NCBI GenBank assembly: GCA_964360145.1
Contig: CAYHWW010000002.1
Location: 3,473-67,472 of the forward strand
DNA: 64,000 bases
Direction: 5' to 3'
Source of the DNA: an uncultured Oligoflexia bacterium
Lineage (GTDB): Bacteria > Bdellovibrionota > UBA1018 > CAYHWW01
Shown: positions 1-64,000 of the stretch, piece by piece
Layout: every line of letters starts with the position of its first letter
Position numbering within the stretch: the first letter of the stretch is position 1
The notes under the pieces: model-generated
Told to the model about the DNA's origin: nothing
The model's input: only the letters and a program-made list of their open reading frames with translations
The model's database searches: none
Position numbers and translations under genes: made by a program

Positions 1-50
1 GCCTGGGGCTTTGGGGCTACATTTCTCGCCAAAATCATTGGGGAGGACTC

Positions 51-4498: not shown

Positions 4499-4506
4499 GG
4501 ACAGTG

Positions 4507-12109: not shown

Positions 12110-12121
12110 TGATGGTGATGA

Positions 12122-14639: not shown

Positions 14640-14645
14640 TTTGAG

Positions 14646-15524
14646 ATGGCCAGTTCAAAAGACTTACGCAAACGCATTTCGACGGTGAAGAACACGCAGC
14701 AGATCACCAAGGCCATGAAAATGGTGTCTGCCGCGAAGCTGCGCCGCGCTCAGGATGCCATCGTCAGCTTGCGCCCCTATGCCCGCGAGATCCAAGCCAT
14801 CGTGAGTTCCATTGCTCGTTCCACGGAGGCGGCTCACCCACTGATGGATGAGGCTCGTGCGGAGTCCGGTGACAAGGTGCTCGTCGTGGTTGTTACTTCT
14901 GATCGCGGCCTCTGTGGCGCCTTCAATGCCAGCGTCATCAAGGGCGCCATGCGTTACATGCGCACCCATGGCCATAAGTACAAGAAGTTTGAGTTGGGCT
15001 TTGTGGGCCGCAAGGGCTACGAATTTTTCAAGACCCGGACGCCCAACGCTGGTCGCTACTACCAGAACTTCTTTAGCGGCCTGCGGTTCGCCAAGTCTCA
15101 GGCCATGGCTGAAGAGCTAATTGCCCAATATACCGCGGGTGATTTTGATCAGGTCTTCTTCGTCTACAATGAGTTCCAATCAGCGATCTCTCAAAAGGTT
15201 GCGGTGGAGCGTTTTCTCCCCGTGCGCATTGAAGGCGCAGGCACGGAAACAGCGGGGGACCAAAACCCCGTGGCCTATGAGCCCAGTCGTGAAGAGATAC
15301 TAGACATGTTGTTGCCCAAGCACTTCGCTACGCAGATCCACAGGATTTTACTGGAGTCCTTGGCCAGCGAGCATGGTGCGCGCATGTCCGCCATGGAGAA
15401 CGCAACGAAGAATGCCGGTGAGATGATGTTTGCGCTCTCTCTGGAGTACAACAAGACCCGCCAGGGTGGCATCACCAAGGAATTGCTGGAAATCGTTTCG
15501 GGCTCCGAAGCCCAAAAGAATTAA
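14646..15524 (+). CDS. atpG: F0F1 ATP synthase subunit gamma
   Basis: Gamma N-terminal motif (IKNTQQITKAMKMVSAAKLRRAQ), conserved C-terminus. Confidence 0.95.
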   Translation: MASSKDLRKRISTVKNTQQITKAMKMVSAAKLRRAQDAIVSLRPYAREIQAIVSSIARSTEAAHPLMDEARAESGDKVLVVVVTSDRGLCGAFNASVIKGAMRYMRTHGHKYKKFELGFVGRKGYEFFKTRTPNAGRYYQNFFSGLRFAKSQAMAEELIAQYTAGDFDQVFFVYNEFQSAISQKVAVERFLPVRIEGAGTETAGDQNPVAYEPSREEILDMLLPKHFATQIHRILLESLASEHGARMSAMENATKNAGEMMFALSLEYNKTRQGGITKELLEIVSGSEAQKN

Positions 15525-47291: not shown

Positions 47292-48334
47292 TCGTGCTCC
47301 GCGAGGTCACCGAAGACGACATCCCCGGCCTGGAGCGACTGTCCTCCATCGCCGCGGAGCGCCACCCGGGTTTCCTCAATGTGCCATCCGACCCGGAGGG
47401 CTGGCGGGAAAAGATCTCTTTTTCCCAGCACAGCTTCGCCGGGAAGTTGGAGTCCCCTCATGCCGGGAAATATATCTTCGTCGCTGAAGACACGGAGAGC
47501 AAGCACGTCGTGGGCATTTCCATGGCCGCATCCCAGCACGGCACCAAGGATAGCCCCCATTTTTATTTTGAAGTGGGCCACGAGCAAAAGTTCAGTCAGA
47601 CCATCAACACCGGGTTCATCCATGGCACGTTGAGTCTCAAGATCGAATACGATGGGCCGACGGAGATCGGTGGTCTCCTCGTGGACCCTGAGAGCCGCAA
47701 CACGCCGGACCGCGTGGGACGCCAGATCTCGTTCGTGCGCTTTCTCTACATCGGCGCTCATCGCACGAGTTTTCGTGATCATATTCTGGCTGAGCTGCTC
47801 CCCCCCCTCACGAAGAAGGGCAAGTCCCCTCTTTGGGAAGCCGTCGGACGACGCTTTACCAATATGGACTACTGGGAGGCGGACTATCTCAGCTCAAAAA
47901 ATAAAGAGTTCATCCTCTCGCTTTTCCCGAGCGGTACCATCTACGTCACCTTTCTTCCCGCCGATGCCCGGAATTCCATTGGTAAAGTAAGCAAAGAGAC
48001 CGAGCCCGTCATGCATATGCTCAAAAAGGTCGGATTCAAATATTTAAACCAAGTGGACCCCTTTGACGGAGGCCCCCATTTGGTCGCCCGTACCGATGAG
48101 GTGACGCCCATTCAAAAGGTTGCGCCCTTAGCCTATGGCGGCACGCTCAGCGAATCCGGTGAATCCGAAACGGACACAAGCGGCATTGCTTCGCCCAAGG
48201 ATGCCAAGCCGTTCCGAGCTCTCTCTGTGAGGGGCGTAGTCAAAAATGGGGCATTGTACACTGACCACCCCGGAATCAAGTCGTATCTTGGCTTGAAACC
48301 TGGCGATGCAGTGCTGTACATGCCCTACTACTGA
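47288..48334 (+). CDS. astA: arginine N-succinyltransferase family protein (AstA/AruF-like)
   Basis: AstA-family architecture (MIVLREVTEDDIPGLERL..., HGTLSLKIEYDGPTEIGGLLVDPESR, FPSGTIYVTFLP); about 348 aa. Confidence 0.8.
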   Translation: MIVLREVTEDDIPGLERLSSIAAERHPGFLNVPSDPEGWREKISFSQHSFAGKLESPHAGKYIFVAEDTESKHVVGISMAASQHGTKDSPHFYFEVGHEQKFSQTINTGFIHGTLSLKIEYDGPTEIGGLLVDPESRNTPDRVGRQISFVRFLYIGAHRTSFRDHILAELLPPLTKKGKSPLWEAVGRRFTNMDYWEADYLSSKNKEFILSLFPSGTIYVTFLPADARNSIGKVSKETEPVMHMLKKVGFKYLNQVDPFDGGPHLVARTDEVTPIQKVAPLAYGGTLSESGESETDTSGIASPKDAKPFRALSVRGVVKNGALYTDHPGIKSYLGLKPGDAVLYMPYY

Positions 48335-48349
48335 GGTGAGGTCCTAACG

Positions 48350-49882
48350 ATGAGTTCGATGAAGCGCTCCTATGAGAAGCTGCTGACGCCAGCGGGCAAC
48401 TATATTGCCGGCACTTTTTCAAAACCCAAGGATCAGGCAGGGGTCATTACCATCAAAAGCCCCGCGGATTTCAGCGATGTGCTGGGGGCTTTCACCTATT
48501 GTTATCAAGACGTGGATACTGCCGTTGCTTCAGCGCGGGATGCCTTCGAGGGTTGGCGCAACTCCGCCCAATCCACGCGGACTGAGTATCTGGTGAAGTA
48601 CCGTGATGCGCTGAAAAAAATCGAACCTCGCCTGGCGGAGGTCATTGCGCGTGAAGTGGGCAAGCCCCTTTGGGAAGCCAAGGGCGAAGTGTCCACGATG
48701 ATCAACAAAGTGGACGTCACCATCAATGAGGGTTTGCCTCGGGTAGAGGCTAAGGCCATCGTCGGTATCATGCCAGGCACAACGGGCATCACTCAGTACA
48801 GGCCTCACGGCGTGTTCTTGGTGTTGGGGCCCTTCAATTTCCCTGGTCATCTAGCCAATGGCCACATTGTTCCCGCGCTGCTCGCGGGCAATACGGTGAT
48901 CTTCAAGCCGTCAGAAAAAAGTCCTGCCACCGGGCAGCTCATGGCTGAGGCTTTTCATGAGGCCGGTCTTCCCAGGGGCGTATTTAATTTGGTGCAGGGA
49001 GAGCGAGAGGTGGGCCGTAGGCTCACCACCCATGAGGGCATCGACGGGATTCTCTTTACGGGCTCTTATGAAGTGGGCCTGAAGATCAAGCAGGATACGC
49101 TGCAGCAGCACTGGAAGCTCTTGGCTCTTGAGATGGGAGGCAAGAACGCCTCTCTTGTGTGCGAGGATGCCGCGCTGGACGCCGCTGTGTATGAGATTCT
49201 GAGCAGCGCGTTTCTTACCGCGGGCCAGCGGTGCACGGCCACTAGCCGGGTGTTGGTGCACCGCAAACTACACGCTGCGTTCATCGAACGCTTCCACGAA
49301 AAGGCGAAAAAGTTCCAGATTGGCCATCCCCTGGACAATCCGTTCATGGGGCCGCTCATCGATGGGGCCGCGGTGGAGAAATACATCATGTTCACCGGCA
49401 TCGCGGAGCGTGAAGGCTGCGAGATTATCATGAGGGGCAAGGAGCTGCAGACCGACTACAACGGGCACTATGTGACCCCCTCCCTTTGCTTGGTAAAAGA
49501 CACCTCGCTGCAAGCCGTGAAGAAAAGCGTGTATCAACAAAGCGAGATCTTCGGCCCCAATGTGGCGATCTATTCTTTCGATGATCTGGACGAGGCCGTG
49601 AAGTTGGCCAATGCCACTCAATTTGGCTTGGCGGCCAGCATTTTCACGGCGCGGCACGACACGTTCCTGAGGGCGTCACGGGATATTCGGGCCGGCCTCA
49701 TCAACTGGAACCGCTCCACTGTGGGCGCCTCCTCGCGACTGCCCTTCGGTGGCATCAAGCGCAGCGGCAACCATGTGCCCGCCGCCATCGCTGCCATCGA
49801 TAGCTGCGTTTACCCCGTGGCCACCCTCGAAGTAGAGGCGCCGACGGTACCTACCCAGGTGTTGCCCGGCCTGGGGTGGTAG
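48350..49882 (+). CDS. astD: succinylglutamate-semialdehyde dehydrogenase
   Basis: Closely matches the AstD sequence as I recall it (GKPLWEA.GEV..MINK; RPHGVFLVLGPFNFPGHLANGHIVPALLAGNTVIFKPSE; ALEMGGKN; TAGQRCTA). Confidence 0.88.
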   Translation: MSSMKRSYEKLLTPAGNYIAGTFSKPKDQAGVITIKSPADFSDVLGAFTYCYQDVDTAVASARDAFEGWRNSAQSTRTEYLVKYRDALKKIEPRLAEVIAREVGKPLWEAKGEVSTMINKVDVTINEGLPRVEAKAIVGIMPGTTGITQYRPHGVFLVLGPFNFPGHLANGHIVPALLAGNTVIFKPSEKSPATGQLMAEAFHEAGLPRGVFNLVQGEREVGRRLTTHEGIDGILFTGSYEVGLKIKQDTLQQHWKLLALEMGGKNASLVCEDAALDAAVYEILSSAFLTAGQRCTATSRVLVHRKLHAAFIERFHEKAKKFQIGHPLDNPFMGPLIDGAAVEKYIMFTGIAEREGCEIIMRGKELQTDYNGHYVTPSLCLVKDTSLQAVKKSVYQQSEIFGPNVAIYSFDDLDEAVKLANATQFGLAASIFTARHDTFLRASRDIRAGLINWNRSTVGASSRLPFGGIKRSGNHVPAAIAAIDSCVYPVATLEVEAPTVPTQVLPGLGW

Positions 49883-49912: not shown

Positions 49913-51073
49913 TCAAAACCACTTCCAGAACCAATATTTCTCAAACAGGATTTTGAGAATGTGCCAGCGAAGCGCGGGTGGCTTTATCGCAACGGCTGGA
50001 GCGGGCTCGGCGTAGAAATTTCCACTTCCGATTCCTGCCCTGTGATCGCCGGTTTCGATGAAGCACAGTCCGTGACCGTCAAAGGAGCGGGCCTCGCCCT
50101 GCCGCCCGGTCCATTCGTGGGCGATATTGTGCGCGACAACCTCGGCCTGTCCATGTGCGAACACACCAGCTTTAGGAAGTGGTTTCCCCATTTTGAGCGG
50201 AACTGCGACGACATCCCCGATGGCATAGACCCCTTGGTACTTCGTCTGAAAGGTGTGGTGGTCGACGACGCCCCAGCCATTTTCGGAGACTAGCCCAGCC
50301 TGTTTCACGACCTCGGGCGCACGATGCGGTGGGACATAGAACAGCAAATCAAAATTCGCAGTGGCACCCCCGGAGAACGAGATTTTTCTGGCCGTGGGAT
50401 CAACTTCCATCACCTGGTGGCTTGGGTAGTATTTGATCCCCTTGGATTCCACTATCTGGCGAACAGCAGCGGAAACCTTCGGTCCCGCCGTTCCCATTGG
50501 ACCGGGCTCCGCGGTGTAGAGAGCAATCTCGATCTTATTGCGTGTGCCGTGCTTCCGACAGAAGGATTCAACCAACATGGCCGCTTCGTAGGGAGCCGCC
50601 GGACATTTGTACACGGGGTTTGTCGTCAGGATCACGATCTTTCCGCCTCGGAACGCTGCAAGATCCACGTAAATCGCGCTTGCCCCGTCGAGAGTGTAGA
50701 TGTTTCGACCCACATCATTCAGTCCTGGAATAATCTCGGGAGCCAGCTCGGCGCCCAGAGAAATGACTATGGCATCCCCGGAAAGCTCCCGTCCCGCGAC
50801 CCGGACGGTTTTCGTCTCGGGGCTGATCTTTTCGATTCGACCCCTGACAAATTCGATTCCCTTTCGATTCAGGAGGCTCAGAGGACGCACGATTTGTTCC
50901 GCTCGCCTCATCCCGATCATTACCCACAGAAGGGAGGAGGCAAAGATGTGTTTGTCCTCCTGGTCAATCACAATGATTCGATGTTGCCGCGGTAGCAACT
51001 TTCGTAAGGTATTCGCCGCGACAACACCACCAACTCCACCGCCCAAGATCAAAGCTGTTTTTACGTCGTTCAT
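49913..51073 (-). CDS. FAD-dependent pyridine nucleotide-disulfide oxidoreductase, sulfide:quinone oxidoreductase-like
   Basis: N-terminal FAD motif ILGGGVGGVVAA, second dinucleotide fold, conserved Cys in KCPAAPYE, C-terminal amphipathic tail; adjacent to DsrE. Confidence 0.7.
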   Translation of the reverse strand: MNDVKTALILGGGVGGVVAANTLRKLLPRQHRIIVIDQEDKHIFASSLLWVMIGMRRAEQIVRPLSLLNRKGIEFVRGRIEKISPETKTVRVAGRELSGDAIVISLGAELAPEIIPGLNDVGRNIYTLDGASAIYVDLAAFRGGKIVILTTNPVYKCPAAPYEAAMLVESFCRKHGTRNKIEIALYTAEPGPMGTAGPKVSAAVRQIVESKGIKYYPSHQVMEVDPTARKISFSGGATANFDLLFYVPPHRAPEVVKQAGLVSENGWGVVDHHTFQTKYQGVYAIGDVVAVPLKMGKPLPKAGVFAHGQAEVVAHNIAHEWTGRQGEARSFDGHGLCFIETGDHRAGIGSGNFYAEPAPAVAIKPPALRWHILKILFEKYWFWKWF

Positions 51074-51082
51074 GATGTGCCC

Positions 51083-51433
51083 CTAAAATACGATGACTTT
51101 ATCGGCCCAGACGGTCCAAGCGGTTAGCTCATCAAGCGTGCTTCGCTTGGCGCCTTCCATGAGTTCTTGTTCGGTGATCCCACGCGCATCCATGCACGTC
51201 CCGCAGACGCCGATTTCTGAATTGTGGCGAACGACACTCTTAATCATGAGTTCGATGTTGTAGTACCCTTGAGGAAGCTTGTGGCCCTTCTTGGGACAGG
51301 ATGCCGCGTCTCCCATCAGGAATACTTTAACCTGCTCACCCTCGCGTTTAGCCAACGAGCCCGCGAGCCGCAGGCCGTTGTAGCTTCGCTCAGTTCCGTA
51401 GGGGGCATCATTCAGAATAAAAAGTGTCTTCAT
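51083..51433 (-). CDS. DsrE/DsrF/TusD-family sulfur-relay-like protein
   Basis: MKTLFILNDAPYGTERSYNGLRLAG...GVCGTCMDARGI, typical DsrE fold with conserved Cys; start placed at internal ATG 51433. Confidence 0.7.
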   Translation of the reverse strand: MKTLFILNDAPYGTERSYNGLRLAGSLAKREGEQVKVFLMGDAASCPKKGHKLPQGYYNIELMIKSVVRHNSEIGVCGTCMDARGITEQELMEGAKRSTLDELTAWTVWADKVIVF

Positions 51434-51594
51434 TTTTCGCTCCTCTTCAGCGGTTCCATATTGGTCATCCTTCTCAAAACCGTTCAAGGCACAAAGCGTC
51501 GCGTGTGACCTGGCCGGTAGGCACGGTCAATGCAATGGGATGGGCAAGGGGAACGGAATGCCCCGAATTGGTACATCCACGGAGAGGATCGCCC

Positions 51595-52065: not shown

Positions 52066-53535
52066 TCACCAGTAGGCGTAGGGCATGGGCATCGCATAGG
52101 GAGCGTAGGTCGCCTGGTTGGGGGATGCGCCGTAGAAGTAGGATGCGCCGTAGCCCGTTGAGCCCTCGGAGGCGTCGTTGTACTCGCCGCGTGATGCGTT
52201 CTCGGACCAGTGGCGTTGGGCCATTTGGTCAGCGATGCCGCCGGAGCGTTCGCCGCGACGGCCCACTTCGGCACCGAGGAGGCGGTTGCCATCGAGGTAC
52301 ATGCGGGTGAATGGGCGCTCTTCGGCATTGGCGCGGGTTTCGTGGCGGGCCATTTTGGCGACGTGACCCTTTTGGGCCAGCAGGCGTTCCACTTTCCGGC
52401 GGATTTGGCGGTAGTTGCGTCCATCGCGGTCTGGGTGTTCCGCGGCGAAGGCCAATTGCTCGAAGGCAAGGCGATCCACGGCCATAAGCGCACCGCGGGC
52501 CCCCAGGCGGCGAGCATCAGAGAGAAGGTGCTCGCGAAGGGTCAAGCGACGGCGGTCAAAGCGCACATCATCATCGTTCTCACCGGCTTCCAGATCATCC
52601 TTGATGGCATCAGAAAGTTTCATCAAAGCTTCGCCCACGCGACGCTTGTAGTCTGCGTTGTCTTCAGCGAAGGCCCAGAGCGCGTCACCTTTTTCGGTGG
52701 CCTCGGTCAGGTTATTCACGGCCATGTCCAGGATGCCATCGAACATAGTAGCGAGGCGCTTCTCTTCAAGGCGGTTGGCCACGGTCACCATGCCGGCGAA
52801 ACCACGAAGCTCATTGATGGCGTCAGCATCGCCTTCAGCGGCGCGGGCACAGATGCCTTCAAGCTGAGCCTTCTCTTCACGAGCGGCCTCTTCTGCTGCT
52901 TGGGCCGCGATTTCGGCGGCGCCCGTGTGGTGCACGAGGGTGCGCACGGTTGTGGGAGGCAAGGCTTCGCCGGTGCCGCTGGGGTCCATCTCAGTGCTCG
53001 CCACGCGGTGAACCACATCGCCGCTTTCAGTGAGGGAGTGGGTGGCCACAAGGGGGGCGATTTCGTTCAAGGGAGTACAGTTGCGCTCAGAGGGGTTCAG
53101 GCTCAGCTTGCAAGCGGTGGCGGGATTAGCGCCAAAGCACACCTCAGGGGTGACGACGTTGCCCGCGGCATCAATCTGGTTATGGGCTTCCACATGGAGG
53201 GGGTAGGCGTGGGCTTCAGCATCGTAGATGTTTTCGGTGCCGGGGGCGCCCAGGGTGACATCGATCATGCTCTTACATTCATTGGGAACCCAGCCGCGCA
53301 GGCTCACGAAGCTAGTGCCATCGGGGCGCTGTTCGATGACCGCGCCGAAGCTGCGAACAAAATTTTGTATCTGAGAGGCAGGGATAATGCGCCGGTTGCC
53401 CACTTCAGTTTCTAGTGTGCCAAGGGTGGGAATATCCATCGCCAAACCCACTCGGGGGAGGAATGCCGCGGCGGACGTCAGGGCCACAATGAACTTCAAG
53501 CTTTTGGATTGCATAGATACTCCTCTGGTTCTCAA
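52066..53535 (-). CDS. hypothetical secreted protein (489 aa)
   Basis: Signal peptide (KFIVALTSAAAFLPRVGLA), helical/charged middle, C-terminal Tyr/Ala/Pro-rich tail (YAPYAMPMPYAYW). Confidence 0.5.
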   Translation of the reverse strand: MRTRGVSMQSKSLKFIVALTSAAAFLPRVGLAMDIPTLGTLETEVGNRRIIPASQIQNFVRSFGAVIEQRPDGTSFVSLRGWVPNECKSMIDVTLGAPGTENIYDAEAHAYPLHVEAHNQIDAAGNVVTPEVCFGANPATACKLSLNPSERNCTPLNEIAPLVATHSLTESGDVVHRVASTEMDPSGTGEALPPTTVRTLVHHTGAAEIAAQAAEEAAREEKAQLEGICARAAEGDADAINELRGFAGMVTVANRLEEKRLATMFDGILDMAVNNLTEATEKGDALWAFAEDNADYKRRVGEALMKLSDAIKDDLEAGENDDDVRFDRRRLTLREHLLSDARRLGARGALMAVDRLAFEQLAFAAEHPDRDGRNYRQIRRKVERLLAQKGHVAKMARHETRANAEERPFTRMYLDGNRLLGAEVGRRGERSGGIADQMAQRHWSENASRGEYNDASEGSTGYGASYFYGASPNQATYAPYAMPMPYAYW

Positions 53536-53715: not shown

Positions 53716-54765
53716 ATGAGACTTTTCGAGAGGATCCGCGCCGAAGGCTACGAACAGGTCGTGTTTTGCCACGACAAAGAAGTGGGCCTCAAGGCCATTG
53801 TGGCGATCCATGATTCTACCCTGGGCCCCGCCGTGGGCGGCTGCCGCATGTATCCTTATGCTTCCGAAGATGCGGCCCTGGAAGACGTGCTCCGTCTTTC
53901 TAAGGGCATGAGTTATAAATCCTCCATCAGTGGTCTCGGTTGGGGTGGCGGTAAAGCCGTCATCATCGGCGATTCAAAAAAAGATAAAACGCCGGGTCTA
54001 CTCCGCCGCTTCGCCCAATTCGTTGACTCCCTGAGCGGTCGTTACATCACCGCCAAAGACGTGGGCATCAGCACGGATGATCTTAAAATCATGCGCGAAG
54101 TGAGCCGCCATGTCCTCGGCATGGATGGAGTGCCCGGTTCCAGTGGCGATCCCTCCGTTTTCACCGGCTGGGGCGTTTATAACGGCATGAAGGCCGCCGC
54201 CGCTCATCTTTGGGGCAGTGACTCTTTGAGGGGCAAGCGCATCGCTGTGCAGGGTTTGGGCAAGGTGAGCACCTATCTCATCACCCACCTGGTGAAAGAG
54301 GGCGCTGAAGTCATTGGTGCCGACGTGGATCGTGACGCCGTGGCCCGGGCCCGGGACGAGTTTGGCGTGAAGATCGTCGATGCCGACCGTATCCTCTTTG
54401 AGGACTGTGACATTCTTTCCCCCAACGCCATGGGCGGCAGCATCACCAAAGACGTGGCGGCTCGCATCAAGTGCAAGATCGTGGCTGGTGGTGCCAACAA
54501 CCAGCTCGCCACCCCGGAAGAGGGCTATGCCCTCATGCAGCGGGGCATCGTTTATGCGCCCGACTACGCCATCAACGCCGGCGGCATCATGAACATCTAC
54601 AATGAAATCGGTGGCTACGACGCGAAGAAGGCTTGGGACCATGTGGCCCAGATCCGTGGCACCGTGGCGCGAATTCTGGAGCGGGCGAAGACGGAGAAGT
54701 TGCCGCCCCACCTCATCGCCGATCGCATGGCCGAGGAGCGCATCGCCAATGGCAAGCGGCGCTGA
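53716..54765 (+). CDS. Glu/Leu/Phe/Val-family amino acid dehydrogenase (leucine dehydrogenase-like)
   Basis: Catalytic Lys region GLGWGGGKAVIIGD, NAD motif GLGKVSTYL; ATG 53716 with GGAGGGA RBS (ORF track 53608). Confidence 0.85.
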   Translation: MRLFERIRAEGYEQVVFCHDKEVGLKAIVAIHDSTLGPAVGGCRMYPYASEDAALEDVLRLSKGMSYKSSISGLGWGGGKAVIIGDSKKDKTPGLLRRFAQFVDSLSGRYITAKDVGISTDDLKIMREVSRHVLGMDGVPGSSGDPSVFTGWGVYNGMKAAAAHLWGSDSLRGKRIAVQGLGKVSTYLITHLVKEGAEVIGADVDRDAVARARDEFGVKIVDADRILFEDCDILSPNAMGGSITKDVAARIKCKIVAGGANNQLATPEEGYALMQRGIVYAPDYAINAGGIMNIYNEIGGYDAKKAWDHVAQIRGTVARILERAKTEKLPPHLIADRMAEERIANGKRR

Positions 54766-55807
54766 TCGGTTCGGCACACATAGAGTAATGGTTCCCCGGG
54801 GTAGCCTGCCGCAGCAGGCACAGAAGCTATCGCCCGCGCTTCCCATCCACGGCAATGAGATGCTCATCGAGGTTGAAGCGCTGAACATTGATTCGGCAAG
54901 CTTCCACCAGATTCGTGAGAGCTGTGGTGGCGACGTGGGGCTCATGGAGCACATGATCCGTGACATCGTGAAAGAGCGGGGCAAGCTGCAGAACCCCGTC
55001 ACTGGCTCCGGTGGCATGCTCATCGGCACCGTGAAAGAGGTGGGCTCGGAGTTTCTCGTGGAGCGTCCGGCATCCGAGCAGGTGGAGGTGGGCGACCGCA
55101 TCGCCACGCTGGTGTCGCTGACTCTGACGCCCCTCGTGATCCGTCGGGTGAAGAAGATCCACCTCGATAAAGACCGGGTGGACATCGAGGGCCACGCTAT
55201 TTTGTTTCAGAGTGGCATTTACAGCAAACTGCCATCGGACATCCCCGATGCGCTGGCACTTGCCATTCTCGACGTGGCGGGCGCCCCGGCCCAGACTCAA
55301 GCTCTATGCAAGCCTGGTCAGACCGTGGTGGTTCTGGGGGGCGCGGGCAAGTCCGGCATCCTTTGTTTATATGAGGCCAAGCGTGCGGTGGGGGCCGGGG
55401 GCCGCGTCATCGGTCTCGACTACAATGAAGCTGCCGCACGGACAATGAAGGGGTTTTCCTTTGTGGATGATGTCGCGGTAAGTGACGCCCGCAACGCCGT
55501 GGCCACCTGGCGCACGGTGAGTGAGCTCACCGGGGGCAAGATGGCCGACGTGGTCATCAACGTCACCAATATCCCCGACACCGAGATGTCCTGCATTCTG
55601 GCAGCTAAGCCCGGGGGGCTGGCGTACTTTTTCAGCATGGCCACGAGCTTTACCAAGGCAGCCCTGGGGGCTGAGGGCGTGGGGGCCCACGTGGAGCTTA
55701 TCATGGGCAACGGATACCGCCCCGGTCATGCCGCGCTTTCCCTCGACATCCTGAGGCAATCGCGGGAGATTCGGGAACTATACGAGCGCAAGTATGGCCC
55801 ATCTTGA
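54749..55807 (+). CDS. kdd: L-erythro-3,5-diaminohexanoate dehydrogenase-like
   Basis: Read as Kdd from length, linkage with kamDE and kce, and a nucleotide-binding-like fold (VVVLGGAGKSGI); exact start uncertain (54749 or 54788). Confidence 0.7.
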   Translation: MASGADRFGTHRVMVPRGSLPQQAQKLSPALPIHGNEMLIEVEALNIDSASFHQIRESCGGDVGLMEHMIRDIVKERGKLQNPVTGSGGMLIGTVKEVGSEFLVERPASEQVEVGDRIATLVSLTLTPLVIRRVKKIHLDKDRVDIEGHAILFQSGIYSKLPSDIPDALALAILDVAGAPAQTQALCKPGQTVVVLGGAGKSGILCLYEAKRAVGAGGRVIGLDYNEAAARTMKGFSFVDDVAVSDARNAVATWRTVSELTGGKMADVVINVTNIPDTEMSCILAAKPGGLAYFFSMATSFTKAALGAEGVGAHVELIMGNGYRPGHAALSLDILRQSREIRELYERKYGPS

Positions 55808-57359
55808 GCTAAAACATCAGACCATCATCGAGTGTCGGCGCTTGGCGAATGAGATCGTCGCCAAGGTGAAGCCCGTTATCGACACACATACTACTGTCAG
55901 CATCGAGCGGGCGTCCCTGCGCCTCATCGGCGTCGAAGGCGCGCTGAGCCGTGAGGGGTTGTCCTACCCACTGGTGAACCACATCGTGGACCAGCTGCGG
56001 GAGGATCGGGCCCTGGCGAGTGGTGCCCTCTACTGGTTTGCCAACGCCATGATGCACACGGGTAAGTCAGTTGAAGACGTGTGCCGTGACATCACCGCGG
56101 GCGAGTTGCGTCTCGGCCAGCAGCCACGATTACCCTTGGCTGAAGTGCGTAAAATCGCCGTCGATCTCTGCCGCAAGGGGCTCGACCGCGTGGCAGCTAA
56201 AAAAGAGCAGCGCAATGTGCTTCGCAAAAAACAGGGCGATCCCTTCGACATGACCTTCCAGGGTAGTCCCCTGATCTATGTCATCGTGGCGACGGGCAAT
56301 ATCTTTGAAGACGTGGCCCAAGGCAAGGCCGCCGCCCGGGCTGGCGCCGAGGCAATCGCCGTCATCCGCAGCACTGCTCAAAGTCTCCTCGACTATGTCC
56401 CCGAGGGCGCGACCACCGAAGGCTTCGGTGGCACCTACGCCACGCAAGAAAACTTTCGCATCATGCGAGCGGCACTGGACGAAGTCGGTGACGAAGTGGG
56501 GCGCTACATCCGCCTCACGAATTATTCCTCCGGGCTTTGCATGTCCGAGATCGCCGCCACGGCGGCGTTGGAGCGCCTGGACTTCCTGTTGAATGACGCC
56601 ATGTACGGCATTCTCTTCCGCGACATCAACATGAAGCGCACTCTCATCGACCAGCACTTCTCGCGTCTCATCATTTCCGCCGCGGATATCGTTATTCATA
56701 CCGGGGAAGATAATTATCTCACCACCGCCGATGCGGTGGAAAATGGCCATCAGGTGCTGGCCTCCCAGTTCATCAATGAACGTTTTGCCGTGAACGCCCA
56801 CATGCGTGAAGAGCAGATGGGCTTGGGCCACGCCGCGGAGATGAACCCCTGGCATCCCAATGTGTTGCTCCTCGAGATTGCCCGGGCGCAGATGACACGG
56901 GATATTTTCCCCAAGGCACCCATTAAGTTCATGCCGCCCACCCGCCACAAGGTCGGCGATATTTTCTTCAGTCACTTGATGGATGCCATGTTCAATCTCG
57001 TGGGATCCCTCACCAACCAGGGCATTCAGCTCCTGGGCATGCCCACCGAGGCCATGCATACGCCTCTGCTCATGGACCGCTGGATGAGTATTAAGAACGC
57101 CAAGTACGTCTTCGGCGCCACGAAAGACCTGGGCAAAGAGATCACTTTCAAAAAAGATGGCGTGATCTCCAAGTGGGCCAATAAAGTATTGGATGACACC
57201 CTGACTCTCCTGCGTCGCATCGAGCGTGACAGCTTATTCAAGGCAATCGAAGAGAAGGCTTTTGCCAACGTGTCCCGCAAACTCGATGGCGGCAAGGGCC
57301 TGGATGGTGTCGTGCTTCGGGACAAAGATTATCTCAACCCTTTCTTTGAGCTCCTATGA
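55794..57359 (+). CDS. kamD: lysine 5,6-aminomutase alpha subunit (PLP-binding)
   Basis: 521 aa; N-terminus HTTVSIERASLRLIGVEGA resembles the KamD sequence as I recall it. Confidence 0.88.
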   Translation: MAHLELKHQTIIECRRLANEIVAKVKPVIDTHTTVSIERASLRLIGVEGALSREGLSYPLVNHIVDQLREDRALASGALYWFANAMMHTGKSVEDVCRDITAGELRLGQQPRLPLAEVRKIAVDLCRKGLDRVAAKKEQRNVLRKKQGDPFDMTFQGSPLIYVIVATGNIFEDVAQGKAAARAGAEAIAVIRSTAQSLLDYVPEGATTEGFGGTYATQENFRIMRAALDEVGDEVGRYIRLTNYSSGLCMSEIAATAALERLDFLLNDAMYGILFRDINMKRTLIDQHFSRLIISAADIVIHTGEDNYLTTADAVENGHQVLASQFINERFAVNAHMREEQMGLGHAAEMNPWHPNVLLLEIARAQMTRDIFPKAPIKFMPPTRHKVGDIFFSHLMDAMFNLVGSLTNQGIQLLGMPTEAMHTPLLMDRWMSIKNAKYVFGATKDLGKEITFKKDGVISKWANKVLDDTLTLLRRIERDSLFKAIEEKAFANVSRKLDGGKGLDGVVLRDKDYLNPFFELL

Positions 57360-58108
57360 AGACGGATCTAAAGGCCCTCAAGCCCTACGGCGACATGATG
57401 GGTGACGGCGTAGTGCAGCTTTCCTTTACGTTGCCCGTGGAGCAAGGGCCCGAAGCCCGAGAGGCCGCCGTGCAGCTGGCTCAGAAGATGGGCCTCGATG
57501 AGGTGAAGATCGCCACCATGGAATCCGCCACCAGCGGCTTCGCCTTTTTTGTCATCTACGGGAAGATGAAGCACACCGTGGATTACACCGCGATCCGGGT
57601 GGTGAAGATCGAGGCGGCAAAGCGTTCACGTGAGGAAATCGACGAGCTCATCAAAGAAAAATTGGGCCGCAAGGTCGTGATCCTCGGCGCCTGCACGGGC
57701 TACGACGCTCACACCGTGGGCATCGATGCTATCTTCAACATGAAAGGCTTCGCCGGTGACTACGGTCTCGAGCGCTACGAGTGGCTGGATGCCCGCAACC
57801 TGGGCGCCCAGGTGCTCAATGAAGAGCTTCTGAAAAAGGCCATTGAGGCCAAGGCCGACGCCATTCTCGTGTCGAAGATTGTCACCCAGCACAACATTCA
57901 CATCACGGATCTGAAGGACCTCCTCGTTAAGGCCGAGCAGATGGGCTTGCGTGACAAGTTGGTGTTTGTGGCCGGCGGCCCTCGCCTCACCCACCAGATC
58001 GCCTTGGAGTGCGGCTTTGATGCGGGCTTTGGCGTGGGCACTAAACCTAGCGAAGTGGCGAGCTACGTTGTGGAAGAAGTTTTGAAGCGCAAAAAGGGTA
58101 GCGACTGA
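57356..58108 (+). CDS. kamE: lysine 5,6-aminomutase beta subunit (B12-binding)
   Basis: About 250 aa; B12-binding Rossmann domain with DxHxxG (GYDAHTVGID). Confidence 0.88.
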   Translation: MKTDLKALKPYGDMMGDGVVQLSFTLPVEQGPEAREAAVQLAQKMGLDEVKIATMESATSGFAFFVIYGKMKHTVDYTAIRVVKIEAAKRSREEIDELIKEKLGRKVVILGACTGYDAHTVGIDAIFNMKGFAGDYGLERYEWLDARNLGAQVLNEELLKKAIEAKADAILVSKIVTQHNIHITDLKDLLVKAEQMGLRDKLVFVAGGPRLTHQIALECGFDAGFGVGTKPSEVASYVVEEVLKRKKGSD

Positions 58109-58998
58109 TGGCGAAGGGCGCTCAAACTCCCCAGCAAATTCTCGCCACGGTCCAGGGCAAGGGTGGCATCATCGGCCGTGGCGAAGAGGTGCGCAGGCTC
58201 GCCCTCATGTTGCTGGCCGGTCGCAATATCCTCATCGAAGGCCCCGTGGGCGCGGGTAAAACCGCTTTGGCACAAGCCGTGGCCCATGCGTTGGGCCGCA
58301 CCGTCATCCGAGTGGACGGCGACTCACGTTTTACGGAGCAGAAACTCACGGGCTGGTTCGACCCCGCCCAAGCTTTGAAAAAAGGCTTCAACGCCAGCAC
58401 CTTCGTCGACGGCCCCCTGGTGGGCGCCATGAAGGCGGGGGCAGTGCTTTTCATCAACGAGTTGAACCGCATGCCCGAGGCGGTGCAGAACGTGCTCCTT
58501 CCCGCCATTGATGAGGGCATTGTGCAGATTCCGCAGCTGGGCCCGGTGCGTGCGAAGCCCGGTTTCCTCCTCATCGCAACTCAGAATCCGCGGGAATTCG
58601 TGGCCACCTCCCATCTGTCCGAAGCCCTCATGGATCGCATGGAGTGGTTGCCGCTCTCTTATCAATCCGCCGAGGAAGAGCGCACCATCGTGGAGACGCT
58701 CTCGGAGTTTTCCGAGAAACCCTACTTGGACATGGTCATCAGTCTCACGCGAATGACGCGTAATCACCCCAAAATCAAGCGTGGTGCTTCGGTGCGGGCG
58801 GCCATAGCCATCGCACGCATTTTGTCCGTCACGTTGACGGTCATGGGCAAAATCACGGATCAGGACTTTCTCGATGCGGTCATGGCGGCGCTGCCCACGC
58901 GCATCGAACTCTTTGGCTCTGAGTCAGAGGGTGGCACGGAAGCCATGGTGAAGAGTCTCGTCTTGGAGCTCATCGAGGAAGTAAAAAAAAAATCTTGA
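58108..58998 (+). CDS. MoxR-family AAA+ ATPase
   Basis: Walker A GPVGAGKTALAQ, Walker B LFINELNRMP, sensor region; about 296 aa typical MoxR size; A10 tract at 3' end. Confidence 0.85.
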   Translation: MAKGAQTPQQILATVQGKGGIIGRGEEVRRLALMLLAGRNILIEGPVGAGKTALAQAVAHALGRTVIRVDGDSRFTEQKLTGWFDPAQALKKGFNASTFVDGPLVGAMKAGAVLFINELNRMPEAVQNVLLPAIDEGIVQIPQLGPVRAKPGFLLIATQNPREFVATSHLSEALMDRMEWLPLSYQSAEEERTIVETLSEFSEKPYLDMVISLTRMTRNHPKIKRGASVRAAIAIARILSVTLTVMGKITDQDFLDAVMAALPTRIELFGSESEGGTEAMVKSLVLELIEEVKKKS

Positions 58999-59936
58999 AT
59001 CCTCCTGAGGATCCGGGCTTCCTCGCCACATTGGAGATCGCCGAGCAGCGCGGCCCCGAAAAAATCGAAGTGCGCTTCCTTTCGCCGGAGTTGCTTGCCG
59101 CTGGCGCTGATGAAGATATTTCGGGCTATGATAAAAAGCCCAACTGGGACGTCGCGGTGCGCTATCAGGACCTGAAGCGTCTCTTGTCGTTGCCCGATGA
59201 GAAGAAAACCAAGCTGAAGGAGCGTGCCGTGCAAGGCATCATTGAGCGGGCCAAGGCGGCCATGGGCTCCGTCATCAAGCCGGAAAAGAAAGAACTTCTG
59301 TCCTGGCAGGAGTTCACGGCCAAGGGAGCCCACGGGGAGCTGGACGTCACGGCCACCCTGGACGAGATGGTGGGGCGCGGCGAGATCCTTGAGTCTCTGC
59401 GTTTCGAGGCCCGGGTGCAGAAGGACCGAGATGTGGTGGTGCTTCTCGATGCCAGTCTCAGCATGACCAGCGACAAGATGGCGCTGCTCGCGGTTGCCAG
59501 CGCGGTGGTCGCTCTTTGCGTGCCCTCCCGTCACCTCTGCCTTGTGTCATTTTCTTCACAGCCCCGCATGGTCAAGCGTTTCGACGAAGAGCTCTCCGTG
59601 AAGACGGTTGTGGAAAGAGTTTTAGAGATTCCCACCCTGGGCCTCACGAACATCGAGGGTGCATTATTGGAGGCACTCAAAATACTCGATCGCGAAGGAC
59701 GCCCCGGCGCCAACGTGATTTTGGTGGGCGATGGTAAGTACACCGAGGGGAAAGACCCATCATATCTCGGGGGGCGCTTCAAAAAACTCCACGCTTTGAA
59801 GCTGGGCCGGGATATCGCCGGTCGGGCGTTGTTGCAGGACCTGGTGCGCCAGGGCAACGGCCGCCTCTTCGAGGTGCGACGCATGCCCGAGCTTCCTCGG
59901 GTCATGTACGGAGCGTTGCGTTCCCTCCTGCGCTAA
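58995..59936 (+). CDS. VWA (von Willebrand factor A) domain protein, MoxR partner
   Basis: VWA fold with MIDAS-like motif (VVVLLDASLSMTSDK), TTG start overlapping the MoxR stop (translational coupling). Confidence 0.7.
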   Translation: MNPPEDPGFLATLEIAEQRGPEKIEVRFLSPELLAAGADEDISGYDKKPNWDVAVRYQDLKRLLSLPDEKKTKLKERAVQGIIERAKAAMGSVIKPEKKELLSWQEFTAKGAHGELDVTATLDEMVGRGEILESLRFEARVQKDRDVVVLLDASLSMTSDKMALLAVASAVVALCVPSRHLCLVSFSSQPRMVKRFDEELSVKTVVERVLEIPTLGLTNIEGALLEALKILDREGRPGANVILVGDGKYTEGKDPSYLGGRFKKLHALKLGRDIAGRALLQDLVRQGNGRLFEVRRMPELPRVMYGALRSLLR

Positions 59937-59969
59937 GTTATTCATGCAAAGGCTCTAAGAGGGGAAATC

Positions 59970-60785
59970 GTGGAAAAGCTCATTATTACTTGCGCCATCA
60001 CGGGTGCGGAGACCATGAAGCAGGCTTGTCCGCCGCTTCCCACTACTCCGGACGAACAGGCTCAAGCTGCCTACGACTGCTGGAAGGCTGGGGCCACGGT
60101 CATTCATCTCCATGTGCGTGACGACCAGGGTAAGCCCACCCCGTCCCTCGCGCGTTTCAAAGAGAGCATCGAAAAAATCCGCGCAAAATGCCCCGTCATC
60201 ATCCAGATTTCAACGGGCGGCGCCGTGGGTGACCCCATGGACCAGCGCATGGCGCCCCTCGCTTTGAAGCCAGAAATGGCGAGCCTTAATACGGGGTCCA
60301 TCAATTTCGGTGACGACGTGTTCATCAACCACCCCAGAGAGGTGGAGGCCCTCGCCGCTAAAATTTACGGACTCGGAATCATGCCCGAGCTCGAGATTTA
60401 TGATTTTGGCATGCTGGAGGCCACCCTGCGCATGTTGAAAAAGGGCATCCTGAAAGAGCCTGCCCATTTTCAATTCGTGCTGGGCACCAGCCACGGCATG
60501 AGCGGCGAGGCGCGAAATCTTTGTCGTCTGGCTGACGCCATCCCCGGTGGCGCATCGTGGGGCGTGGCGGGCATCGGCCGCTACCAGCTGCCCTGCGCCG
60601 CTCAGGCCATCACCATGGGGGGCCATGTGCGGGTGGGCCTGGAGGATAACATCTATTGGTCCAAGGGTGTCGTGGCCCAAAGCAACGCTCAATTGGTTGC
60701 CCGAGTGAAGCAGTTAGCGGATACTTTGCAGCGTCCCGTGGCCACGGTAGAGGAAGCCAGGCAAATCCTGGGTTTGAACAAATGA
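59970..60785 (+). CDS. kce: 3-keto-5-aminohexanoate cleavage enzyme (BKACE/DUF849 family)
   Basis: TIM-barrel BKACE motifs (LIITCAITGAET, ATVIHLHVRD, ISTGG, HVRVGLEDN); GTG start with AAGAGGGGA RBS. Confidence 0.85.
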   Translation: MEKLIITCAITGAETMKQACPPLPTTPDEQAQAAYDCWKAGATVIHLHVRDDQGKPTPSLARFKESIEKIRAKCPVIIQISTGGAVGDPMDQRMAPLALKPEMASLNTGSINFGDDVFINHPREVEALAAKIYGLGIMPELEIYDFGMLEATLRMLKKGILKEPAHFQFVLGTSHGMSGEARNLCRLADAIPGGASWGVAGIGRYQLPCAAQAITMGGHVRVGLEDNIYWSKGVVAQSNAQLVARVKQLADTLQRPVATVEEARQILGLNK

Positions 60786-62002
60786 AGCAAGCGACAGTGT
60801 CATTGGCCGATATTGAGCAGGCTCGTCAATTTCTTAAAACCATCATTGAGCCCACGCCGCTGCTTTACAACCAGTGGTTGAGTCAGAGCCTCGGCTTCGA
60901 GTGTTACCTGAAGCTGGAGAACATGCTGCCCATCGGCTCCTTCAAGCTCCGAGGCGCTGCCTACAAAATTTCCACCCTGACGTCGCAACAAAAGCGCAAG
61001 GGCGTCATCTGCGCCAGTGCCGGCAACCATGCGCAGGGTGTGGCTTGGGGCGCCCGTCATCTGGGCGTGGATGCCACCATCGTCATGCCCGAAGGTGCGA
61101 GCCTTGTGAAAGTGCAGAGCACCAAAGCCCTCGGTGCGAAGATTATATTCCACGGCAATAGCTATGATGAGGCTTTTACGGAGGCATCCGCCATTGCGCG
61201 TCGCACGGGTAAAGTTTTTGTCCACGCTTTTGAGGACAAATCCGTCATGGCTGGTCAGGGGACTATTGGTCTGGAGATTGTGGATCAGCTGCCAGAAGTT
61301 GATGCGGTGATCGGTTCCATTGGTGGTGGTGGTCTCATGGCTGGCGTGGGAACCGCGCTCAAAGCTCTCAAGCCACAGATCAAAATATACGGCTGTCAGG
61401 CGGCAGGGGCCCCGGCCATCTACCGGGCGCTCAAGTCCCACAAGGCACTGACTCTGGATCGGGTGGATACTTTCGCTGATGGCATCGCCGTGCGTTCAGC
61501 AAAGCCCGCCATGCTGAAGATCTTAAGGGGCGTGCTCGATGGGATCTATTTAGCAGATGACGAAGCCATCGCTGAGTCCATGCTCACCCTCATGGAAAAA
61601 GCGAAAACCGTGGCGGAAGCTTCCGCGGCCATCACGTTATCCATCGCTCAAAACATCCGCTCCAAGCTTAAGGGCCAGAAAGTCGTTCTCATCATCTGCG
61701 GAGGCAATGTGGACGTTAACGTCCTGGGCCGAGTCATTGACCGCGGTCTGATCAAGGCCGGGCGCCGCATTCGCCTCAATGTGCATATTTCCGACAGGCC
61801 CGGCTCACTAAGCGCGCTGACCGGTGTCATTGCCGCGGCAGGTGCTAACATTCTTCAGGCAATCCATGATCGCGGGGAGCTTTCCACGGGGCTCAATGAA
61901 ACCGGCGTGGAATTGACCCTGGAAACCCGCGGTCCGGAGCACACAAAGGAACTGTTGAAAAAATTGCGCACCGTGGTGACGCAATTGGATATGTTACACT
62001 GA
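60782..62002 (+). CDS. ilvA: threonine ammonia-lyase (threonine dehydratase) with C-terminal ACT-like domain
   Basis: PLP-Lys motif SFKLRGA, GGGGL glycine loop, C-terminal regulatory domain; ATG 60782 overlaps kce stop (ORF track 60656). Confidence 0.85.
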   Translation: MKQATVSLADIEQARQFLKTIIEPTPLLYNQWLSQSLGFECYLKLENMLPIGSFKLRGAAYKISTLTSQQKRKGVICASAGNHAQGVAWGARHLGVDATIVMPEGASLVKVQSTKALGAKIIFHGNSYDEAFTEASAIARRTGKVFVHAFEDKSVMAGQGTIGLEIVDQLPEVDAVIGSIGGGGLMAGVGTALKALKPQIKIYGCQAAGAPAIYRALKSHKALTLDRVDTFADGIAVRSAKPAMLKILRGVLDGIYLADDEAIAESMLTLMEKAKTVAEASAAITLSIAQNIRSKLKGQKVVLIICGGNVDVNVLGRVIDRGLIKAGRRIRLNVHISDRPGSLSALTGVIAAAGANILQAIHDRGELSTGLNETGVELTLETRGPEHTKELLKKLRTVVTQLDMLH

Positions 62003-62011
62003 GGGGACTTT

Positions 62012-62200
62012 ATGAAACACAAAGAGATGCCCAAGGGGCCGCTAACTAAAGTGGAATATGAGCTCGAAAAAGGCGTGGCTGAAACCATCCGCGCCATGGA
62101 GAAGTACACCAAGATTCCCACCACGGTTCTGGTGACTACTGCTCTCAAGCGGTTTATATCATCACACAAGGACTACCTCCCCACCGACTTCAAAGCGTAA
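62012..62200 (+). CDS. small hypothetical protein (62 aa)
   Basis: ORF 9 nt after ilvA stop with GAGGGGA-like RBS; no motif. Confidence 0.3.
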   Translation: MKHKEMPKGPLTKVEYELEKGVAETIRAMEKYTKIPTTVLVTTALKRFISSHKDYLPTDFKA

Positions 62201-63234: not shown

Positions 63235-64000
63235 CTATCCCAGCGATTGCTCCAGCAGCTCAGCGACGTCTTTGACCACGACCTTGTCGCCCACATCTTT
63301 GGCCTTCACGCCGTCGGTCATCATGGTCATGCAGAAGGGGCAGTTGGCGGCGATGATTTTCGCGCCGGTTTCCAGTGCTTGTTCCGTGCGGGTGACGTTG
63401 ACCCGGGCGCCGATGTGTTCTTCCATCCACATGCGGCCGCCGCCAGCGCCGCAGCACATGGACTTGTTGGCGGACTTGGCCATTTCGGTGATCTTCACTC
63501 CGGGGATGGACTCCATGAGTTTTCGAGGAGCGGAATACTCGCCGTTCCATCGCCCCATGTAGCAGCTGTCGTGGTAGGTCACTGATTCCGTGAAGCCCTT
63601 CTGGGGCCTCAGCGCGCCCTTGGCGATGAGTTCTGCCAGCAGCTGGGTGTGGTGGATGACTTCGTAGTTGCCCCCGAAGTCCTTCCACTCATTTTTGATG
63701 GCATTGAAACAGTGGGGGCAGGCAGTGACCACTTTTTTTACGCCGTAGCGGTTCAACGTCGCGACGTTTTCTTTGATGAGCATTTGGGCGAGATATTCGT
63801 TGCCCATGCGGCGGGCGGGGTCGCCGGTGCACTTCTCTTCGTTGCCGAGGATGGCGAACTTCACGCCGGCCTTGTTCATGAGATTCACCAGGGCGCGGGA
63901 CACTTTTTTGTTGCGATCATCGAATGAGCCCGCGCAGCCCACCCAGAACAGGTAGTCCAGGGGCTCGCCCGCGACGTCGGCCATTTTCTTTACGCTAGAG
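63235..64000 (-). CDS. (Fe-S)-binding CCG-domain oxidoreductase subunit (GlpC/LutA/GlcF-like), 5' end probably beyond the window
   Basis: Two cysteine-rich CCG-type motifs (CPHCFN..., CCGAGGG...ANCPFCM); ORF reaches within 16 nt of the window edge. Confidence 0.65.
   Translation of the reverse strand, partial: SSVKKMADVAGEPLDYLFWVGCAGSFDDRNKKVSRALVNLMNKAGVKFAILGNEEKCTGDPARRMGNEYLAQMLIKENVATLNRYGVKKVVTACPHCFNAIKNEWKDFGGNYEVIHHTQLLAELIAKGALRPQKGFTESVTYHDSCYMGRWNGEYSAPRKLMESIPGVKITEMAKSANKSMCCGAGGGRMWMEEHIGARVNVTRTEQALETGAKIIAANCPFCMTMMTDGVKAKDVGDKVVVKDVAELLEQSLG

Follow-up and report, generated by a model that had tools for sequence, protein, structure and literature searches.

A nine-gene operon

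We analysed a 64-kb stretch of DNA from an uncultured Oligoflexia bacterium of the Bdellovibrionota, hereafter the window, in which nine genes on the plus strand lie within 53716-62200 and are translationally coupled or closely spaced. Their order is LeuDH-Kdd-KamD-KamE-MoxR-VWA-Kce-IlvA-small open reading frame (ORF). Four of them are assigned to the 3,5-diaminohexanoate branch of lysine fermentation and include both subunits of lysine 5,6-aminomutase (5,6-LAM). Two others, encoding a MoxR-type ATPase and a VWA protein, form a pair that we propose serves this aminomutase as an ATP-dependent chaperone.

Along the operon, the junctions overlap by 17, 14, 4, 1, 4 and 4 nt, and the sole gaps are 33 nt 5′ of kce and 9 nt 5′ of the terminal small ORF. 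Given such tight junctions, we read the nine genes as a single operon, and LeuDH, IlvA and Kdd make it a set of deaminating enzymes for amino-acid catabolism in a Bdellovibrionota bacterium. A ribosome-binding site, GGAGGG, lies 5′ of the LeuDH ATG, and the 180-nt intergenic region 5′ of the operon is common to the operon and a divergent gene. Promoter and terminator scans performed no better than on shuffled sequence, and the Rfam scan of the window for riboswitches or other RNA control returned one tRNA only.

The four lysine-pathway enzymes

A preliminary description of this DNA had placed Kdd, KamD, KamE and Kce side by side at 53716-62002. All four identities hold up, but the genes are not adjacent, as 1.8 kb encoding MoxR and VWA (58108-59936) separates kamE from kce.

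Kdd, the predicted L-erythro-3,5-diaminohexanoate dehydrogenase (54749-55807), passes the curated profile NF052381 with 232 bits against a cutoff of 200 and matches the solved 3,5-diaminohexanoate dehydrogenase 7dl3 over its full length (residues 2-350, 350 bits). Its start is most likely the ATG at 54749, which overlaps the LeuDH stop by 17 nt. KamD, the predicted alpha subunit of 5,6-LAM (55794-57359), scores 751 bits with NF052384 (cutoff 600) and 758 bits with PF09043, and KamE, the predicted beta subunit (57356-58108; Pfam OAM_dimer and B12-binding), passes NF052385 with 359 bits (cutoff 280).

Ornithine aminomutase was considered as an alternative identity for KamDE and rejected. KamD scores 599 bits against the solved 5,6-LAM (9q1a/8t0v/1xrs) and 103 against ornithine aminomutase OraE; for KamE, the corresponding values are 292 and about 104 bits. 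The OraE model reaches 140 and 139 bits, compared with 751 for the KamD model, and the two-subunit architecture of about 520 + 250 aa is unlike OraS/OraE. When KamE is aligned to the solved enzyme, the DAHTVG motif that supplies the histidine ligand (base-off/His-on, DxHxxG) and the NMKG motif with the pyridoxal phosphate (PLP) lysine are both kept.

Kce (59970-60785) belongs to the BKACE family, with 351 bits to PF05853. It shares ~62% identity (317 bits) with the characterised Cloacamonas Kce, 2y7d, whereas the next BKACE reaches 193 bits; other BKACE equivalogs for stand-alone enzymes score at most 259 bits. Motifs conserved in the alignment are IHLH, E(I/V)Y, QISTGG and (L/F)EDN, and we take IHLH and LEDN to hold the Zn ligands, and the catalytic glutamate to be assigned, as in the study of 2y7d. 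Judged by sequence, KamDE is a lysine 5,6-aminomutase and not an ornithine aminomutase, the four proteins are genuine members of the 3,5-diaminohexanoate branch, and neither ornithine aminomutases nor unrelated BKACE or Kdd subfamilies supply the best matches.

The MoxR ATPase and the VWA protein

The gene for the MoxR-type AAA+ ATPase (58108-58998; Pfam AAA_5 and AAA_3) starts 1 nt inside kamE, overlapping its stop. It is followed by the gene for a partner VWA protein with a metal-ion-dependent adhesion site (MIDAS), 313 aa long (58995-59936; Pfam VWA_CoxE, VWA_2 and VWA), whose start is uncertain; the TTG at 58995 overlaps the MoxR stop.

The best PDB sequence matches of the ATPase are the Midasin AAA domains, NorQ, a MoxR protein and CbbQ. 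Its AlphaFold2 model (pLDDT 92.5) superposes best, at TM-scores of 0.72-0.85, on NorQ as present in its complexes with NorD and on CbbQ, the Rubisco activase. NorQ and CbbQ are MoxR partners of VWA proteins, and the NorQD and CbbQO pairs activate or mature specific enzymes. The Walker A motif GPVGAGKT is conserved along with ATQNP, DRM and RGASVRA, so that sensor 1, the arginine finger and sensor 2 are kept. The Walker B motif, LFINELNR, departs from the canonical hhhhDE: asparagine replaces aspartate in 118 of 120 homologues while the catalytic glutamate is kept, and the consensus of the clade is (I/V/L)LF(I/V)NE(L/M)NR.

In the VWA protein, the MIDAS residues D152, S154, S156, T218 and D246 complete the DxSxS...T...D pattern and are invariant in 28 homologues. 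The AlphaFold2 model (pLDDT 84) has a disordered stretch at residues 1-41, then a helical segment and then the VWA domain, whose fold matches generic VWA domains, including NorD of the NorQD complex and the MIDAS domain of Midasin.

Two other identities were tried for these proteins and rejected. No NCBIfam equivalog matches the ATPase; the best, the gas-vesicle protein GvpN, scores 99 bits against a cutoff of 267, and scans of the window found no gas-vesicle genes. A cobaltochelatase (CobS/CobT, ChlD-like) fares no better, with 20 bits to CobS, 31 to the Cob-chelatase model and no CobN-like gene.

Distribution of MoxR-VWA and KamBC beside kamDE

To survey the loci we scanned one genome per species with the KamD alignment as query, which gave 80 loci that were tabulated by tblastn. 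MoxR lies directly after kamE, followed by VWA, in L001-L011, L013-L016, L026, L030 and L040, which is every Bdellovibrionota-type genome locus whose contig runs past kamE; the contig of L012 ends just after that gene. MoxR homologues at 50-84% identity come, where named, from Bdellovibrionota, Bacteriovoracia, Oligoflexia, Bdellovibrionales or 'Deltaproteobacteria' metagenome-assembled genomes, and on three contigs of such homologues the gene order is that of the window.

MoxR and VWA are missing from every Firmicutes, Bacteroidota, Thermotogota, Asgard or other locus. Where these non-MoxR loci have enough flanking sequence, they show kamA, then two genes, then kamD. The two intervening genes are those that NCBIfam names 'lysine 5,6-aminomutase reactivase subunit KamB' and 'reactivase ATPase KamC'. 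Conversely, the flanks of the Bdellovibrionota-type genome loci contain no KamA (~10 kb), KamB, KamC or Kal, and AtoDA occurs among the MoxR-type genome loci only in L030, ~7 kb downstream of the module. Restricting the count to loci with at least 4.5 kb upstream and at least 2.2 kb downstream (n = 51), we found MoxR and VWA without KamB/C in 11, KamB/C without MoxR in 38, neither in 2 and both in 0; thus 38 of the 40 non-MoxR loci with enough flank carry KamB/KamC.

A neighbour-joining tree of 102 KamD sequences places all 37 MoxR-linked KamD in one clade, together with one from a contig that ends after kamE, and no KamBC-type KamD falls inside it. Four sub-clades of KamD mirror sub-clades of the ATPase tree. 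The matching sub-clades therefore point to one origin and long co-inheritance, and they indicate that KamD, KamE, MoxR and VWA have been inherited together since that origin.

Two kinds of locus narrow down the partner of MoxR-VWA. In one sub-clade (L026, L030, L040, L104, L106, L122, L133 and L149), only KamD-KamE-MoxR-VWA are together, with unrelated neighbours and neither Kdd nor Kce in the vicinity. In L016, kamD and kamE are pulled apart by an insertion of 3.4 kb, which encodes at 11703-14909 a protein of 247 aa and a secreted subtilisin-like protease of 820 aa, yet MoxR-VWA still follows kamE. Because the four-gene module and the interrupted locus both keep the linkage, the conserved partner of MoxR-VWA is the aminomutase and not Kdd, Kce, LeuDH or IlvA.

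Some minor features of these loci may be recorded here. L030, of the sub-clade with the stand-alone module, is labelled Bdellovibrio sp. ZAP7. L056 and L081, which are short contigs, one of them labelled Pseudomonadota, have KamA-KamD-KamE-Kal with no KamB/KamC between kamA and kamD and so represent a further variant of the cluster. Certain substitutions are specific to the MoxR-linked clade, with a frequency of 92% or more among MoxR-linked enzymes and of 8% or less among those of the KamBC type. Examples are KamE D135, four residues after the PLP lysine, which is histidine in 93% of the other enzymes, and KamD D389, which is asparagine in 96%. As a guide to further hypotheses, these two are possible docking or regulatory sites.

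A chaperone model for MoxR-VWA

Taken together, these observations lead us to propose, with a probability of roughly 0.55, that MoxR-VWA is a KamDE-specific ATP-dependent chaperone, probably a cobalamin reactivase, that displaced KamBC. In this model, the VWA protein would dock on the mutase via its MIDAS site, and the NorQ/CbbQ-like hexamer would spend ATP to open KamDE, so that cobalamin damaged in suicide inactivation could be swapped for fresh adenosylcobalamin (AdoCbl). MoxR-VWA would then take over the role credited to 'E2', the classical protein, and, in canonical clusters, to KamB/KamC. A requirement of 5,6-LAM for an ATP-dependent reactivating protein, E2, has been described (PMC9081730). 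The parts of the proposal do not stand equally firm. That MoxR-VWA acts on KamDE seems to us somewhat more likely than not; one sub-clade keeps KamD-KamE-MoxR-VWA only, which links the pair to the mutase itself. That it is a reactivase rather than a cofactor-loading or regulatory factor, for which the basis is the gene linkage and the displacement of KamBC, we put at slightly short of an even chance.

Comparison with KamB/KamC (NF052386/NF052383; the classical 'E2' activity) is central to this model. Both systems are two-gene modules with one ATPase, located beside kamDE, and the two are mutually exclusive. They have no homology, however: the ATPase KamC has a MutS domain V and KamB matches nothing in Pfam, whereas the pair described here would combine an AAA+ ring ATPase with a VWA/MIDAS protein as its putative adaptor. 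Their positions also differ, in that kamB and kamC precede kamD and MoxR and VWA follow kamE.

In architecture the pair resembles NorQ/NorD, CbbQ/CbbO (Rubisco activase) and CoxD/CoxE, which share the AAA+ fold, the VWA partner with an intact MIDAS and a gene position beside that of the client. The likeness has limits, as sequence identity to NorQ and CbbQ is 17-25%, Walker B reads NE rather than DE, and CbbO is much larger than the 313-aa VWA protein. In addition, the proposed client, a cobalamin/PLP aminomutase, is not among the clients known for MoxR. Other reactivases or chaperones of B12 enzymes, namely DdrAB/GdrAB, EutA and MeaB, are Hsp70-like ATPases and a G-protein. Their task is the one proposed here, to free an AdoCbl enzyme of damaged cobalamin in a nucleotide-driven manner, but they belong to unrelated protein families and none is encoded here.

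The new element at this locus is thus the apparent non-orthologous displacement of the aminomutase reactivase by MoxR-VWA. We found no curated family for the pair, and literature searches returned nothing relevant on a MoxR-aminomutase link, on KamB/KamC or on Bdellovibrio aminomutases. The preliminary description had called the cluster a variant, which it is, but had missed its main difference, the replacement of KamB/KamC by MoxR and VWA. If the model is correct, MoxR-VWA chaperones would gain a new class of client, a B12/PLP radical enzyme, and the few known B12-enzyme reactivases a new protein architecture. It would also provide a testable candidate for keeping lysine 5,6-aminomutase active, as suicide inactivation limits its use as a biocatalyst. 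Should the model fail, the locus would still be an ordinary gene cluster for lysine catabolism, correctly identified, in a further phylum.

The family beyond kamE and alternative explanations

A metagenome scan with the ATPase alignment gave 80 further loci, and VWA lies 3′ of MoxR in 58 of 61 metagenome loci. Most MoxRs away from kamE form a distinct large clade in the ATPase tree and are often fused to VWA in proteins of ~600 aa. Corrinoid-related neighbours recur across the family but are not universal. They occur beside paralogous MoxR-VWA genes in L099, L107, L111, L113 and L150 (and in L114, L118, L130 and L138). In one paralogous sub-clade, a fused ~600-aa MoxR-VWA lies among MttB-family and MtrH-type corrinoid methyltransferases, a LarA-like gene and DUF2284; another sub-clade adjoins CobQ and CobD-like genes of cobalamin biosynthesis. 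These contexts suggest a wider link of the MoxR-VWA family to corrinoid enzymes. A broader proposal, which we advance tentatively and with less confidence than its parts above, is that MoxR-VWA is an unrecognised structural class of B12 reactivase, NorQD/CbbQO-like, that displaced KamBC once in Bdellovibrionota and may join a wider 'NE' Walker B family serving corrinoid methyltransferases and B12 biosynthesis.

Several observations weigh against the chaperone model. The ATPase competence of MoxR is uncertain given the asparagine in Walker B. All MoxR-linked loci go back to one evolutionary event in one phylum, the anticorrelation with KamBC, though perfect, therefore counts as a single independent observation, and KamB/KamC could be present elsewhere in these genomes. 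In the metagenome loci with upstream sequence, kamE is 5′ of MoxR in only 25 of 57. Two split pairs branching off beside the window's own sub-clade (L087 and L152) do not adjoin kamE, carry a histidine-kinase-like gene or an amino-acid permease upstream and are true exceptions. Further neighbours of the family are mixed, with histidine kinases, permeases, MsrA/flavodoxin and a DAP-dehydrogenase-like gene with a class-III aminotransferase. With respect to the pathway itself, Kce falls 5 bits short of its curated equivalog profile (NF052387, 377 bits against a cutoff of 382), and, as KamA and Kal were found neither in the window nor in the flanks, flux through the pathway is assumed.

The single origin, the many unrelated contexts of MoxR relatives and the two pairs near the window's sub-clade would all fit a pair that is a neighbour by descent only. 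MoxR-VWA would then have another client or a general role, having become fixed beside kamE in an ancestor of the Bdellovibrionota, and KamDE would be reactivated otherwise or not at all. We consider this unlikely, as the adjacency persists down to about 50% identity in MoxR and 57% in KamD and outlasts both the loss of all other operon genes in the four-gene module and the insertion in L016. The genes are, moreover, translationally coupled, all 44 KamE-linked MoxRs are separate (split) genes in coherent clades of the ATPase tree, and it is exactly at the loci with MoxR-VWA that the KamBC reactivase is lacking.

If MoxR-VWA does act on KamDE, it might do so other than as a reactivase, either as a maturation factor that loads AdoCbl or PLP or as an ATP-dependent allosteric regulator as in the clostridial enzyme. 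Systems of the NorQD and CoxDE type insert cofactors and do not repair enzymes, the MoxR model matches NorQ in structure, and an allosteric regulation of 5,6-LAM that depends on ATP and works via accessory proteins is documented (PMC9081730). Sequence cannot separate this possibility from reactivation. The annotation of the replaced genes by NCBIfam as a reactivase nevertheless favours an equivalent function, and a non-reactivase role appears to us somewhat less likely still than mere neighbourhood.

The lysine route and its missing steps

In the middle of the route, to judge by homology with solved and characterised enzymes, KamDE, dependent on AdoCbl and PLP, would convert L-beta-lysine to 3,5-diaminohexanoate, Kdd would oxidise this to 3-keto-5-aminohexanoate, and Kce would cleave the latter with acetyl-CoA to give acetoacetate and 3-aminobutyryl-CoA. 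The canonical lysine cluster of Fusobacterium/Clostridium has the order kal-kce-atoDA-kdd-kamA-kamB-kamC-kamD-kamE. Its Kdd, KamD, KamE and Kce are orthologous to those of the window, with 45-58% identity to the Firmicutes, Bacteroidota and Thermotogota copies, and the same chemistry is expected for the middle three steps. The window operon differs in lacking kamA, kal, atoDA and thiolase and in the co-transcription of LeuDH, IlvA and the small ORF. Using KamA, KamB, KamC, Kal, AtoD, AtoA and thiolase of the canonical Caloramator cluster as tblastn queries, we found no homologue of any of them in the 64-kb window at E ≤ 1, in agreement with the preliminary description, to which kamA and kal had not been visible.

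KamA, for the supply of beta-lysine, and an enzyme that deaminates 3-aminobutyryl-CoA, either Kal or a Kat-type transaminase, would thus have to be encoded elsewhere. For kamA we assume this because the intermediates for which Kdd and Kce are specific are supplied by no route other than that of beta-lysine. A precedent for a lysine cluster without kal is the Kat-type variant pathway of Candidatus Cloacamonas acidaminovorans (PMC3149608). The Kat enzyme belongs to the class-III aminotransferases, and a gene for another enzyme of this class lies 8 kb 5′ of the operon, at 44407-45810, with only about 110 bits to any curated model. We regard it as a Kat candidate, although the Cloacamonas cluster keeps kamA, and the window aminotransferase belongs to an AST-like gene set and has no demonstrated similarity to Kat. 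This set (44407-49882, plus strand) comprises the divergent class-III aminotransferase, an M20 deacylase replacing AstE, and AstA-like and AstD-like genes, with no AstB; it is syntenic, in whole or in part, 5′ of the lysine operon in L001/L006, L002, L004, L009, L010 and L014. Further along the route, the crotonase, Hbd and acyl-CoA dehydrogenase encoded at 3-2831 (plus strand) could carry crotonyl-CoA to acetoacetyl-CoA.

With KamA found neither in the window nor within ~10 kb at any Bdellovibrionota-type genome locus, the substrate of KamDE might instead be D-lysine or some other diamine of environmental or prey origin, and the cluster would then run a route other than the beta-lysine pathway. 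Acceptance of D-lysine by 5,6-LAM is known, the solved enzymes bear the name D-lysine 5,6-aminomutase, and in one sub-clade KamDE occurs with neither Kdd nor Kce. In such a route a diamino acid might be the substrate of the LeuDH-like enzyme, as the preliminary description had suggested. We think this quite improbable. Kdd and Kce of the window are close to enzymes specific for 3,5-diaminohexanoate and 3-keto-5-aminohexanoate, which come from the beta-lysine route only, and pathway genes are scattered in many bacteria. The diamino-acid role for the LeuDH-like enzyme finds no support and was rejected on its pocket residues. This ELFV (Glu/Leu/Phe/Val) dehydrogenase, encoded by the first operon gene (53716-54765; Pfam ELFV_dehydrog_N and ELFV_dehydrog), scores 378 bits to leucine dehydrogenase 6acf and keeps the aliphatic pocket V40, I291 and I294 as well as the catalytic K68, K80 and D115 and A113; E114 is replaced by lysine, which is atypical. 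The numbering is from an alignment with coinciding endpoints (1-345 to 1-345). No NCBIfam LeuDH equivalog is matched, the best being ScyB with 354 bits against a cutoff of 600. Most simply, the enzyme would be a branched-chain amino-acid dehydrogenase.

Although the pathway was classically described in clostridia and fusobacteria, a recent horizontal import of the cluster from fermentative anaerobes, with no settled role, is already contradicted by the uniform GC content of cluster and flanks, by the synteny of the operon and even of the upstream AST-like genes across deeply diverged Bdellovibrionota, and by the separate clade that KamD of Bdellovibrionota-type loci forms apart from Firmicutes, and may be set aside.

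The lysine pathway has already been reported from many phyla (PMC3994512), and for that reason its presence in Bdellovibrionota is only mildly surprising and a modest extension. What a mostly predatory phylum keeps, in a conserved catabolic operon, is the middle of this 'fermentative' beta-lysine route, from which units of acetoacetate and acetyl-CoA presumably pass into central metabolism. The lineage is thought to live largely on prey protein, which a deaminating operon would suit.

Remaining operon genes and surroundings

The preliminary description had correctly recognised a Leu/Glu-type dehydrogenase and a threonine dehydratase on either side of the lysine genes. The LeuDH gene is 5′ of kdd in about half of the related loci. 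IlvA, a threonine ammonia-lyase with one ACT domain (60782-62002; Pfam PALP and ACT), overlaps kce by 4 nt, scores 422 bits with TIGR01127 (cutoff 379) and is part of the operon only in the closest relatives of the window (L001/L006, L004 and L086). LeuDH and IlvA, co-transcribed with the lysine genes, would deaminate branched-chain amino acids and threonine, and neither would be a step in the lysine route.

The last operon gene, a conserved ORF of 62 aa (62012-62200), is possibly a ribbon-helix-helix protein; its homologues match VapB/RHH_1 below threshold only. It is present in 19 of 38 KamE-linked MoxR loci, with the motif NTALKRFISxHKDFLP in common. In 18 of the 19 it is on the same strand and at most 180 nt after the last recognised operon gene, whereas the L016 copy is elsewhere and on the opposite strand. 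Its product could be a regulator or a small partner protein.

Elsewhere in the window, we found the F1Fo ATP synthase genes atpA/atpD, gcvP/gcvT of glycine cleavage, flagellar flgG/flgI and, for beta-oxidation, the Hbd, crotonase and acyl-CoA dehydrogenase genes given above, all from groups of genes that the preliminary description had listed. Its label 'respiratory-looking' is weakly founded, as many anaerobes have such genes too. In this groundwater bacterium, the MoxR gene is identical to a copy on a 1.2-kb metagenome contig from Hainich groundwater. The large subunit of methylmalonyl-CoA mutase and its separate B12-binding subunit are encoded at 2828-4911 (plus strand), and the organism therefore uses AdoCbl in at least one other enzyme.

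Upstream of the operon, the divergent gene at 52066-53535 (minus strand) encodes a protein of 489 aa, whose N-terminus resembles a signal peptide and which matches no family. L001-L003 have unannotated proteins of similar size in this position, to which tblastn found no similarity. Further upstream, at 49913-51487 (minus strand), a gene resembling those of type III sulfide:quinone reductases is accompanied by one of the DsrE family. Downstream, at 63235-63984 (minus strand), is a gene for a CCG-domain Fe-S oxidoreductase, which is near the operon in 12 related loci and adjoins EtfAB in L002.

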